Below are positions 5,894 to 13,493 of a stretch of DNA of 64,000 nucleotides, one piece after another. Under the pieces are notes generated by a model that saw only the letters and a list, made by a program, of their open reading frames with translations, was not told the DNA's origin and did no database searches. Where the stretch lies: sequence record PV682554.1; one strand, 5' to 3'. Both the position numbers and the translations under genes were made by a program. This stretch comes from Escherichia phage 92CQ. Positions within the stretch are counted from its first letter, which is position 1. Every line of letters begins with the position of its first letter.

Positions 5894-6235
5894 ATGGAGC
5901 TAACAGAAGTATGGGATATCGCTAAAGAGGCGATTATCCCTCTTATTGGTGTAATCTGGGTGGTCTTCAAACAGAAGATAGATGATATGGCAAGTGATTT
6001 GGATAAAATGGAAGACAAATACCGCGAACTAGAAAAGAAGTTGGTGTTTGTTGAATCCACTTATGCTACCAAAGCAGAACTTGCTCAAATGCTTAACCAG
6101 ATCAACTCTACATTAATGGCAAATAATACTGCCTTAGAACAGAAGATTGAAAAAATAATGGATTTAAAAAATGCTCCTGTTCAATTAATGCTAGAGGAGA
6201 TTACAAAGCGCACACAAAGTAAGGACAAAAATTAA
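5894..6235 (+). CDS. hypothetical protein, N-terminal TM helix plus coiled coil
   Basis: Hydrophobic segment IIPLIGVIWVVF then charged heptad-rich region. Confidence 0.45.
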   Translation: MELTEVWDIAKEAIIPLIGVIWVVFKQKIDDMASDLDKMEDKYRELEKKLVFVESTYATKAELAQMLNQINSTLMANNTALEQKIEKIMDLKNAPVQLMLEEITKRTQSKDKN

Positions 6236-10691: not shown

Positions 10692-13493
10692 ATGTATCCT
10701 ATTCCTTTATTTATGTCAACAACATCAGCTTCAGTAGTAACAGCTACATCTATAACCACTTCCTCTATTGGTATTGCAATAGTTGGTAGTAAAAAGCAAC
10801 TGACATACACAGTTTCACCGGAAGATGGTGCGTTATTTGATATAGCTTTTTCATCTTCAGATAATACCAAAATGGTTATAGATAATAGTGGTATGATGGA
10901 GTTTGTTGCTGAAGGTGGTTTTGATGCAATAATGACAGCTAAAAATAATTTAGGTGCTGTCTTAACTGATCAATCTGGTGGTTATGCTTCAGAATTAAGT
11001 GTGTACACTGAAAGTCTATCTGCTATGGATGTAGGCACTACTCAACAGTTGGTTGCTACAATCAGTCCAGAAGGTGCTAAAGACCTTCCAGATATGGTAA
11101 TTACGTATACCACAACAGATCCAGAAGTAGCTACTGTAAGCCCTACAGGATTAATAACTGCTCTTAAAGATGGTAATTGCCGTATAGGTTGTACTGCAAC
11201 GTATCAAGGAACAGTTGTGGCCTCTGATAGTTCTTATTTAGGTGTTAATGCTATTCCTGTTATTTCTAATGTAACAGCCGTGGCAAACAGCTATGGAGAC
11301 GTTCGTGTTGCTTGGGATGTAGTTGATCCGCTAGATGGTGATACTTATACTGTAGAAGTATTAGATTTAAATAATAACAGTGTCCAGTGGACTACAACAA
11401 CCACGAATACTTACGCCTACTTTGATATCTCTGACTCTATTCCTCTTTATGGGTTTGCTCCAACATACCTTAAAATTAGCGTTAAGAGCACCAAAGCAGC
11501 AGCCGTTATCTTTAATAACTCAATAGCTACAGATGATTCGTTCATTAAAGAAGTTATTGTCTTTGCTGGACAAGATAACGTAAATGCGCACTTTACAGAA
11601 TTGTCTGGTGCAAATAAAGCAGCAATGAGTAGCACAACAGCCCGTAATGCATATGCTACGCAACGTGGTTTAGCAAATGCTGAAGTTCTTCCGTTAAATA
11701 CAGCTTCTGGATCATCAGCAGCAGATAAATATGCTGACGATAAAGCAGGAACAGGTACACCAGACAACTACTGGTATGATCTGGATAACACAGCAGATGG
11801 GCCATGCTTAACTAACTTTATCACTAAAGTCACACCTTATGCAAGTAAGGTTAAAGCAATTATTTGGGGACAAGGTGAAAATGATGCTGTATCCGCATCT
11901 TCAACTGTTGCAGGTAGATACAGTAACACTACACGTTACCATGATGCTACGATAGCTATCTTTGATAAGATGCGTACAATAGTTCCTGCTTCTCAAGCAA
12001 AAATTGTTTGGCAGATCCTAGGACGTTCTTATTTATATGGTGTAGAAGTTAATGGTGTGGATTGGCAGAAATACAGAAATGTACAAAGAGCCATCTCTAC
12101 AGCACGTGATGATGTTATCATTGGTTCTTGGGTGGATGGTGCTGAACGCTACAGTGGTTATGTTTATGAAGAAGGTATTGATGGTCGTATCCATTATATT
12201 TCTTCTGTATACCAAACAGCAGCTACAAAACTTGCTAAATCAGCAGCAGACGGTACAGACTTAACATCAACATCACCTGTTTGGGTTGATATGGCTGTTC
12301 CAACTGGAGCAACAGCTACTTCCCAATCTAATCAAGATACAATTTTAGCATGGGATGCTCAAGGTTATAGTAAACACTACTTCCGTAATATTAACGTCTT
12401 AACAGCATCTGTATTAACTGAACAAACGCTTAATACGAACAGTTATACGTTTACCTATGCAGATCAAGTGGAACAATATGGTTTTGCAGCAGGAACTACT
12501 GTATTTGATGTTGCATATTATGACGAAGCAAATGATGTGTTATCTCCTTTAGTACGTTTTAATGTTAACGTTACCGCGATGGACTATGATTTGACACAAG
12601 AAACTCTTCCAGCAGATGTGCGCGTAAACAGGAGCAACCATTATGCTAGGGCTTCTGGAGATATCCTTGTACCGACAGAGGTTTCTGCTCCTGTAGCACC
12701 TTTAGAATATATTGGTACAACGCCACAAGGTAGACGTGTTGTAGCAGCCAACCGTACATATATCTTTGTCAACAATAACTTGACAACAGCTTCCCCGTGG
12801 TTGAAGACGAACTTGACAGTTACAGCATCAACAATCAACTCTCCGGTTGGAACTACAGCTAACACTTACAAGTTAACACCTTCTACAACTTCAGGACAAC
12901 ATATTTTATCAGCAGTGAATACAGCTTCTGATATTACAGCAGGTAGGCAATGGGCTGCATCTGTATTCTTGAAGCCAGACGGGATCACTAAAGTGAAGCT
13001 CAAATTGACTTCAGGAAATGAGGTTAACGAAGGGACTTATGATCTTGAAGCTGGAACATTTACAGGCACAGATGCAAATATGATCGACATGGGGAATGGT
13101 TGGTATCGTGTAATCTTACATAAAGTAACGGTTGCTAAACAAGCCTCTATGACTTATGAGATTATAGCTTTGAATGCCAGTGGATCAGACACTTTTGCAG
13201 GAGATGGCACTGGAGGTCTTATTGCTTGGGTTCCACAACTTGAAATGGGCGATATGACAAACCCAGTTTGGGCGGGGACACCATTTGTTTGTACTTATGC
13301 ACGAGACACAGATAGTGCTGCCACCTTCACTATTCCTAAGAACGGACACACTGGCGTGGATATTTACCACACAGATGGAACTGTGCAAAGAGAGATTTTC
13401 ACTGGCACAGCTACTACTTGGATGTTATCATTCAACGCCGCAAGTGCAGATTGGGGATCGAAATTCATCTCTGGTTTGAAATATTACGACTAA
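10692..13493 (+). CDS. large tail fibre/adsorption protein with Ig-like (Big_2-like) domain and SASA/DUF303-type carbohydrate esterase domain
   Basis: ATVSPTGLITALKDGNCRIGCTA Ig-like motif; VFAGQDNVNAH, AIIWGQGENDA and DGRIHY resemble GQSN / WxQGE / DxxH esterase triad; 933 aa. Confidence 0.6.
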   Translation: MYPIPLFMSTTSASVVTATSITTSSIGIAIVGSKKQLTYTVSPEDGALFDIAFSSSDNTKMVIDNSGMMEFVAEGGFDAIMTAKNNLGAVLTDQSGGYASELSVYTESLSAMDVGTTQQLVATISPEGAKDLPDMVITYTTTDPEVATVSPTGLITALKDGNCRIGCTATYQGTVVASDSSYLGVNAIPVISNVTAVANSYGDVRVAWDVVDPLDGDTYTVEVLDLNNNSVQWTTTTTNTYAYFDISDSIPLYGFAPTYLKISVKSTKAAAVIFNNSIATDDSFIKEVIVFAGQDNVNAHFTELSGANKAAMSSTTARNAYATQRGLANAEVLPLNTASGSSAADKYADDKAGTGTPDNYWYDLDNTADGPCLTNFITKVTPYASKVKAIIWGQGENDAVSASSTVAGRYSNTTRYHDATIAIFDKMRTIVPASQAKIVWQILGRSYLYGVEVNGVDWQKYRNVQRAISTARDDVIIGSWVDGAERYSGYVYEEGIDGRIHYISSVYQTAATKLAKSAADGTDLTSTSPVWVDMAVPTGATATSQSNQDTILAWDAQGYSKHYFRNINVLTASVLTEQTLNTNSYTFTYADQVEQYGFAAGTTVFDVAYYDEANDVLSPLVRFNVNVTAMDYDLTQETLPADVRVNRSNHYARASGDILVPTEVSAPVAPLEYIGTTPQGRRVVAANRTYIFVNNNLTTASPWLKTNLTVTASTINSPVGTTANTYKLTPSTTSGQHILSAVNTASDITAGRQWAASVFLKPDGITKVKLKLTSGNEVNEGTYDLEAGTFTGTDANMIDMGNGWYRVILHKVTVAKQASMTYEIIALNASGSDTFAGDGTGGLIAWVPQLEMGDMTNPVWAGTPFVCTYARDTDSAATFTIPKNGHTGVDIYHTDGTVQREIFTGTATTWMLSFNAASADWGSKFISGLKYYD

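Follow-up and report, generated by a model that had tools for sequence, protein, structure and literature searches.

Escherichia phage 92CQ carries a phi92-type adsorption locus whose third gene encodes a SASA-fold domain lacking the nucleophile serine

Escherichia phage 92CQ (sequence record PV682554.1) carries, within the 64,000-nucleotide stretch of DNA analysed here (the window), three consecutive fibre or spike genes, designated gene 1 (6235–8649, 804 residues), gene 2 (8691–10652, 653 residues, with a GTG start) and gene 3 (10692–13493, 933 residues). All coordinates refer to the window and all features lie on its + strand unless stated otherwise. The three genes belong to an adsorption apparatus of the type known from phage phi92, and the gene 3 protein contains a domain with the fold of SASA carbohydrate esterases, in which an aspartate occupies the position of the nucleophile serine. 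The reading that we favour, and consider rather probable, is that this domain would act as a module without catalytic activity, for glycan binding or as a spacer, on an accessory fibre that exchanges alleles with those of related phages.

The original prediction, made from the DNA sequence alone, had proposed a multi-component adsorption apparatus here, comprising a β-helix depolymerase, a collagen-like fibre, and a protein combining an Ig-like domain with an O-acetyl esterase. What it had observed is confirmed in part: the three genes are where it placed them, and most of the domains are as described. Its interpretation also holds in part: the apparatus is borne out by the identity of the locus with that of phi92, and so is the depolymerase, while the esterase function is not supported.

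Identity of the locus

At the DNA level, the 7.26-kb stretch spanned by the three genes has 98% identity with the BASEL phage Bas62 (Escherichia phage JohannJBalmer), as it has with dozens of further Justusliebigvirus genomes. By sequence comparison, 92CQ is a Justusliebigvirus myophage (phi92-like, Stephanstirmvirinae). The products of genes 1–3 match PHROG phage tail families with E-values from 0 to 1e-269. Given these matches and the 98% identity to published phage genomes, we conclude that the three open reading frames (ORFs) are real genes and do not arise by chance. Comparison of Pfam and PHROG matches and of annotations shows the gene order around the locus to be that of phi92, gene for gene.

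The central domain of gene 3 has a SASA/SGNH fold

A direct search with the Pfam SASA profile (PF03629) scored 14.7 bits on the full gene 3 protein and 16.7 bits when only the domain was scanned, against a threshold of 24.8 bits, and this sub-threshold match covers only the region of sequence block III. A sample of the family was collected by an exhaustive HMMER search of 1.84 billion proteins with residues 270–560 of gene 3. The search produced 78 representatives, no two of them more than 50% identical, and the residue counts given below come from the 46 of these that were aligned. The family profile matches the cryo-electron microscopy (cryo-EM) model of the gp65 sheath of phage N4 with E = 2.9e-93. 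It also matches the SASA/DUF303 structures 2APJ (5e-6) and 1ZMB (1e-4), as well as a further carbohydrate esterase, 9H4U (E = 0.003). Pfam SASA itself is matched at E ≤ 0.01 by 22 of 31 family members, the best E-value being 2e-13.

The AlphaFold2 model of the SASA-like domain is of high confidence; a single-sequence AlphaFold model of residues 270–560, with a predicted local distance difference test score (pLDDT) of 33.6, was discarded. The profile matches and the model together confirm the predicted SASA/SGNH α/β/α hydrolase fold for the central domain (11529–12281, residues 280–530). The SASA/DUF303 assignment of the original prediction therefore stands as a statement about the fold, but the direct Pfam check that was meant to reveal it fell short.

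We note a peculiarity of the N4 proteins. In gp65 (PDB 9LC0 chain I) the first SASA-like copy, residues 431–602, extends over no more than the first two-thirds of the family profile, and residues 15–78 of gp64 (9LC0 chain M) give a weak match to the final third that it lacks (E = 0.021). This may be a sign that a gp64–gp65 heterodimer completes a single SASA fold in trans.

The nucleophile serine has been lost

The signature of the family is G-Q-S-N ... G-S-S ... Q-G-E-x-D ... H-Y. In gene 3, block I reads GQ-D295-N (GQDN, starting at residue 293), block II A-S-G340-S-S, block III W-G-Q-G-E-N-D (residues 392–398), and block V D497-G-R-I-H501. Two of the three motifs named in the original prediction, GQxN and WxQGEND, are thus present. 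The third, DxxH, is absent from the domain: block V has Gly at H-3 and Asp at H-4 (Asp is found at H-3 in 9 of the 46 family members), and the only DxxH of the gene 3 protein is a DIYH at residue 890, in another domain. The prediction also overlooked that the “x” of GQxN is itself the catalytic residue.

This position, that of the nucleophile, is occupied by Ser in 37 of the 46 representatives and by Asp295 (codon GAT, 11574–11576) in gene 3, where the whole block I segment VIVFAGQDNVNAHF contains no Ser, Thr or Cys. Asp is found in this column in only three aligned proteins, namely the window protein, an identical copy of it, and the sister protein P0004; another member, P0006, independently has Ala. 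In the AlphaFold2 model, the helix coming after strand β1 starts with D295, at the canonical nucleophile position, and H501 (12192–12194) lies directly ahead of the last helix; the relative geometry of D295 and H501 is deduced solely from these secondary structure positions and the motif alignment. The column of the conserved block V histidine contains His in 42 of the 46 sequences, and the profile alignment pairs His501 with the His of the DNLH motif in 2APJ.

The replacement is old. GQDN occurs in all four of the Justusliebigvirus orthologues examined (ALITA, Bas62, PHB05 and muut), with the codon GAT in all five sequences compared. In a neighbour-joining tree of 19 sequences with 500 bootstraps, the window protein and P0004, which is 48% identical to it and also has Asp, are sisters in 500/500 bootstraps, and the pair is nested in a clade in which all the rest have Ser, apart from one with Ala. 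Because the Asp is common to both sister proteins, the change from Ser to Asp is best described as a single old event. We place it in an ancestor shared by the Justusliebigvirus and Avunavirus-type proteins, whose SASA-fold domain descends from GQSN esterases.

Further changes followed in the sister lineage, in which the Gly of block II and the Gln of block III are lost, as is the His in phage 18-1-2 (RIQY). Such additional losses from the active site are the pattern expected once catalysis has gone. There is a parallel in N4 gp65, the closest relative of solved structure: its second SASA-like copy has GINQF where the Ser would be and WIYY where the His would be, with Gln in place of Ser and Tyr in place of His, yet gp65 is a functional receptor-binding sheath protein. 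In the SGNH lipase of Streptomyces rimosus, replacement by Ala of the Ser (Ser10Ala), the Asn or the His each abolishes activity (PMC10779480). Canonical esterase activity of the gene 3 domain is therefore unlikely, given the missing nucleophile, the decay of the sister lineage, the parallel in N4 gp65 and the mutagenesis precedent; the O-acetyl esterase function originally proposed finds no support in block I or in the sister lineage. A search of the literature found no earlier description of gp65/SGNH pseudo-esterase domains of this kind, although such an absence does not prove that there is none.

Possible functions of the retained pocket

Some features of the domain weigh against a wholly non-catalytic role. 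In the window lineage N296, G340, S342, Q394-G395-E396, D398 and H501 are all kept, and these residues of the catalytic blocks have been retained despite an overall divergence of about 50% since the Ser was lost. Among them, N296, G340 and, together with N397, the Q394–D398 stretch agree with the family consensus at the oxyanion-hole positions. This retained pocket argues, at the level of sequence, that there is room for residual or altered catalysis. Furthermore, the ratio of nonsynonymous to synonymous substitution rates (dN/dS) of the SASA-like domain is 0.05–0.14, by which measure the domain is under purifying selection. Given the conserved catalytic-block residues and this selection, the pocket probably still has a role, and binding of a ligand is the simplest role left to it.

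We also weighed the proposal of an active enzyme, a carbohydrate O-acetyl esterase that would use Asp295 and His501, with Asp as the nucleophile or through an activated water, on O-antigen, capsule, colanic acid or enterobacterial common antigen (ECA) during adsorption. We regard this as unlikely. The fold is truly that of SASA/SGNH enzymes, the conservation and purifying selection just described would suit an enzyme, and other annotators have labelled an orthologue “tail carbohydrate esterase”. Moreover, the acid of the triad is dispensable in some SGNH enzymes: the Asn213Ala variant of the Streptomyces rimosus lipase stays active (PMC10779480). It is the nucleophile, however, that is missing here, from a block I that offers no Ser, Thr or Cys as a substitute; among the 46 representatives the Asp is limited to the window clade; the rest of the active site has decayed in the sister lineage that shares the Asp; the direct Pfam score is below threshold; and our literature search found no SGNH hydrolase with an Asp nucleophile. 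To our knowledge none has been described.

A somewhat less probable reading is that the domain has been repurposed, either as a lectin that recognises O-acetylated host glycans without cleaving them (for example the O-acetyl-fucose of colanic acid, which is the substrate of gp150, or O-acetylated ECA), or as the first SGNH-fold hydrolase with an Asp/His pair. We keep this idea alive because every other catalytic-block residue has been retained through the divergence of about 50%.

In the reading that we prefer, a non-catalytic glycan-binding or spacer module, the Ig-like domains of gene 3 and its disabled SASA pocket would make weak or specific contacts to glycans, or would provide spacing. 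Speculatively, the ligand of the pocket could be O-acetylated colanic acid or ECA. According to the BASEL study, this group of phages requires wecB, and ECA was put forward there as the primary receptor that its members share.

Domain architecture of gene 3

The gene 3 protein matches phrog_11922 over its whole length and phrog_32204 over residues 1–628, and there are 26 phage records with coverage of 80% or more of its length. Its orthologue is annotated as “lateral tail fiber protein” in Bas62 and as “tail carbohydrate esterase” in ALITA and KMB37.

The N-terminal part consists of two tandem Big_2 Ig-like domains (10779–11252, residues 30–187). The second (residues 112–170) matches PF02368 with 51.5 bits against a threshold of 22.8, in agreement with the Ig-like domain originally predicted; the first, when residues 25–105 are scanned alone, reaches only 17.8 bits and is thus sub-threshold. 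PHROG Ig-domain families span residues 10–216. The Big_2 pair is followed by a β-sandwich (11253–11516, residues 188–275), for which a Pfam scan gave no significant match. In tblastn searches, residues 184–646, which include this sandwich, are common to N4-like gp65 proteins. After the SASA/SGNH-fold domain comes a second β-sandwich (12294–12575, residues 535–628), formed by strands at the end of the AlphaFold2 model, and the combination of SASA domain and sandwich aligns in N4 gp65 as well. The conserved part of gene 3 stops at residue 628. The muut copy has dS > 1 at residues 535–628, which indicates recombination.

The remainder of the protein is a C-terminal module (12576–13490, residues 629–933), a receptor-binding-type region of some 300 residues that the original prediction had missed. 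It includes a domain at residues ~665–877 that resembles the head spike fibre of the Rhodobacter capsulatus gene transfer agent (RcGTA): residues 688–856 match NCBIfam NF048003 (GTA_spike_fiber) with 72.4 bits against a cutoff of 36, and residues 665–877 match Rcc01080 (PDB 6TB9) with E = 1.2e-13. The module is probably the distal part of the protein that binds a receptor or glycan.

Gene 3 is an accessory, mosaic gene

Comparison of genomes shows gene 3 to be both dispensable and mosaic. In phi92 the copy (NC_023693, 11321–12983) is a pseudogene, with a deletion of 218 nucleotides that takes out the first β-sandwich and a frameshift that leaves the GQDN segment out of frame. Its remnants are annotated as gp152 (202 residues) and gp153 (295 residues; “no RBS, weak prodigal statistics”). 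The possibility that gp153 represents the C-terminal module was rejected, BFVD and blastn both showing it to be the rear part of the SASA-like domain read out of frame. The paper describing BME3 states that a fibre of 939 residues is common to the genus “except for phage phi92”. Since gene 3 is broken in phi92, the cryo-EM maps of that phage cannot contain the gene 3 protein.

Other relatives differ in other ways. The muut copy ends at residue 628, without the C-terminal module, and in ALITA a PHB05-type gene 3 is split into parts of 719 and 172 residues. In the phAPEC8 orthologue (2714–5389 of the phAPEC8 sequence compared), the conserved peptide at the N-terminus is kept together with the Big_2 pair and with the C-terminal module, and an unrelated N-terminal region of ~420 residues stands in place of the sandwich–SASA–sandwich cassette. 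We observe that residues 1–~420 of the phAPEC8 protein contain repeated motifs of the type G-x-N-x-x-G-x-LG, possibly indicating an RCC1-like propeller, and that its very first residues are kept with respect to the window protein (MFPIPIF versus MYPIPLF), so that they may be a peptide for attachment to the virion.

The C-terminal module has a history of its own. Its identity is 99% to Bas62 and 92% to phAPEC8, a Phapecoctavirus, as against 63% to PHB05, which is of the same genus; residues 1–628, by contrast, are 97% identical to PHB05. The junction of the exchange lies near residues 628–640, at the motif MDYDLTQETLP. A C-terminus that is closer to another genus than to its own implies exchange of alleles of the distal domain between genera, and as a pattern of sequence this is clearly exchange of the kind seen at host-range determinants. 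We would picture the gene 3 product as an optional side fibre of the myovirus, whose swappable GTA-spike-like C-terminal domain would contact a variable surface polysaccharide.

That gene 3 is instead a decaying remnant, irrelevant to adsorption in the window lineage, is very improbable: the gene is broken in phi92, which has a very broad host range all the same, as well as split in ALITA and shortened in muut, it is preceded by a terminator-like hairpin, and many relatives were isolated on K-12 laboratory hosts, but in the window it is an intact ORF of 933 codons with an AAGGAG ribosome-binding site, dN/dS is 0.04–0.3 in most pairwise comparisons across its domains, its C-terminal allele was gained by recombination and kept intact, and the 26 phage records cited above preserve most of its length.

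Genes 1 and 2

Gene 1 is 99.3% identical to phi92 gp150 over 804 residues (six differences), and its residues 180–804 are matched by the crystallised fragment PDB 6E0V with 1427 bits. It also matches phrog_6117, “colanic acid degradation”, with E = 1.8e-269. By this near-identity, gene 1 encodes the orthologue of the phi92 gp150 colanidase tailspike, a polysaccharide depolymerase, the activity itself being known from the literature; the β-helix depolymerase of the original prediction is thereby upheld. The Pectate_lyase_3 profile offered as a check on it (PF12708) is matched only below threshold, at the start of the helix (14.9 versus 27 bits). The protein comprises an N-terminal attachment region (residues 1–180), the β-helix glycosidase body, and a C-terminal TSP_Ig-like domain (residues 704–792); it matches Pfam PF20745 with E = 2.6e-14 and has partial similarity to WcaM (E = 1e-28). 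According to a recent account, which cites Xu et al. 2025, gp150 is a hydrolase and not a lyase, and the reported cut is at the β-1,4 Glc–Fuc bond of colanic acid (PMC13450770). By analogy, the gene 1 spike would degrade colanic acid.

Gene 2 is 98.3% identical to phi92 gp151, which has a GTG start too, and phrog_15437 covers its full length. Residues 11–77 form a TSP1/gp66-type docking domain (PF18668, E = 3.3e-21, 75.6 bits against a threshold of 25), and the N-terminus matches the N-termini of the CBA120 TSP1, TSP3 and TSP4 and G7C gp63.1 spikes in the PDB. Phages CBA120 and G7C employ docking domains of the PF18668 type in their branched spike complexes. Beyond the docking domain there are three fibre repeats of the form SAY-x6-G-x2-GT-x6-SLKG, at residues 109, 187 and 294, four G-X-Y runs of 6–9 triplets (residues 210–227, 277–294, 317–343 and 445–462) and four LP..GD.W units. 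Pfam Collagen (PF01391) scores 32.0 bits, above its cutoff of 27.2. The collagen-like segments and fibre repeats that had been predicted are therefore present, and on sequence evidence gene 2 is the orthologue of gp151, a collagen-like tail fibre.

Towards the C-terminus, at residues ~505–529 (10203–10277), gene 2 has a foldon-like motif, GKIYARKDGAWEELT, resembling the C-terminal trimerisation unit of T4 fibritin. It misses the Fibritin_C threshold (19.1–19.2 versus 21 bits), and foldon peptides in the PDB match it at E = 0.05–0.6, so the likeness should be read as a resemblance only. The C-terminal domain comprises residues 535–653. We suggest that the gp151-type protein would be a collagen-like trimer that docks by its N-terminal domain onto another fibre component and gives the apparatus reach. 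In the 2026 phi92 cryo-EM study (PMC13450770), gp151 is among the candidate fibres and fibre II is left without an assignment.

Genomic context and intergenic hairpins

Upstream of the locus are, in order, a baseplate J-like wedge protein, a baseplate protein, a short tail fibre, a fibre chaperone and a lipoprotein, the short tail fibre being the counterpart of phi92 gp147 (“fibre III”). Beyond gene 3 the next ORF, at 13529–13960, is on the – strand; a convergent methyltransferase and the DNA polymerase lie on this side.

All of genes 1–3 have an AAGGAG ribosome-binding site ahead of their start. Between genes 1 and 2 there is a GC-rich stem-loop, AAAGGGGC-GAAA-GCCCCTTT (8654–8673), which was read from the sequence; the terminator scan did not call it, and it has no U-tract. 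The ribosome-binding site of gene 2 comes after it, 7 nucleotides before the GTG start. Between genes 2 and 3 is the terminator-like hairpin AAGCCCC-TTCG-GGGGCTT (10656–10673), followed by ATTATTT and then by the ribosome-binding site of gene 3. The annotation of phAPEC8 has a terminator at the matching place, and the hairpin may attenuate read-through into gene 3. A strong terminator hairpin with a 10-bp stem and a T-run (13497–13520) closes the fibre operon, between the convergent genes. There is thus a GC-rich hairpin 3′ of every fibre gene, with tetraloops GAAA, TTCG and ATTA respectively and a clear T-run only in the last. The three hairpins could determine how much of each fibre protein is made relative to the others.

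On a larger scale, the GC skew of the window changes sign at ~14 kb and ~34 kb, the former coinciding with the point where the + strand fibre operon gives way to genes on the – strand, those of the methyltransferase and DNA polymerase region. A further tailspike-like ORF of 614 residues lies at 95–1939, in the place of the phi92 endosialidase gp143. This ORF, which lacks any Pfam domain, matches Sf6/P22-type tailspikes only in its N-terminal neck (residues 39–89), with E~2e-5. In 92CQ it probably represents the variable “fibre I” cassette.

Comparison with known systems

The apparatus as such is already known: the structure of gene 1 has been solved, and the whole locus is in GenBank at 98% identity, with fibre annotations. 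The corresponding locus of phi92, gp150–gp153, was reportedly named a “multivalent adsorption apparatus” by Schwarzer and colleagues in 2012, and the textbook account of the unusually broad host range of phi92-like phages is their multi-fibre apparatus, the phi92 “Swiss-army-knife” system. Both phi92 and Bas62 (bas62_0033–0035) have the same gene order as the window, near-identical proteins and the same flanking genes. The genes described here would make up the distal half of such an apparatus. The window differs from phi92 in that its third gene is intact at 933 residues where that of phi92 is broken into gp152 and gp153, and in having a different spike (ORF 95–1939) in place of the endosialidase gp143. 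What we add is at the level of annotation, namely a SASA-fold pseudo-esterase domain related to domains of N4 gp65, a pseudogene in phi92, and an exchangeable GTA-spike-like C-terminus.

N4 gp65 (PDB 9LC0, 9YF4 and 9YF5) shares with gene 3 the cassette of SASA domain plus sandwich. It is the non-contractile sheath and receptor-binding protein of a podovirus, with 1382 residues in ten domains; its partner is gp64, and it binds both NfrA and the tail plug. Gene 3, by contrast, combines a single cassette with Big_2 domains and a GTA-spike-like C-terminus, would belong to the baseplate of a myovirus, and is only 19–24% identical to gp65. We do not therefore regard it as a gp65 orthologue: only the cassette is common, and the architecture outside it differs. 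For genes 2 and 3 together, the idea that a gp66-type anchor and a gp65-type cassette mirror the gp66/gp65 module of N4 was rejected, since PF18668 is widespread in CBA120- and G7C-type spikes.

The SASA/DUF303 esterases 1ZMB, 2APJ and NanS (3PT5) have GQSN, whereas gene 3 has GQDN, lacks the DxxH, and scores below the Pfam threshold. In the SGNH esterase tailspikes such as G7C gp63.1 (PDB 4QNL), as in gene 3, an SGNH-fold domain forms part of a receptor-binding protein; G7C gp63.1 and the CBA120 tailspikes also have an N-terminal docking domain of the same type as that of gene 2. Rcc01080 of RcGTA (6TB9), homologous to residues 665–877 of gene 3, is located on the capsid spike, whereas here the domain is at the end of a tail-associated protein.

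These comparisons have practical consequences. Because the nucleophile is missing, the label “tail carbohydrate esterase” overstates what the sequence supports, and it could mislead both host-range prediction and the mining of genomes for enzymes. Gene 3 is intact in Bas62-like phages, whereas phi92, which alone in the group has cryo-EM maps, carries a broken copy; a comparison of the two virions could help to assign the fibre densities still to be identified in this group, such as fibre II.

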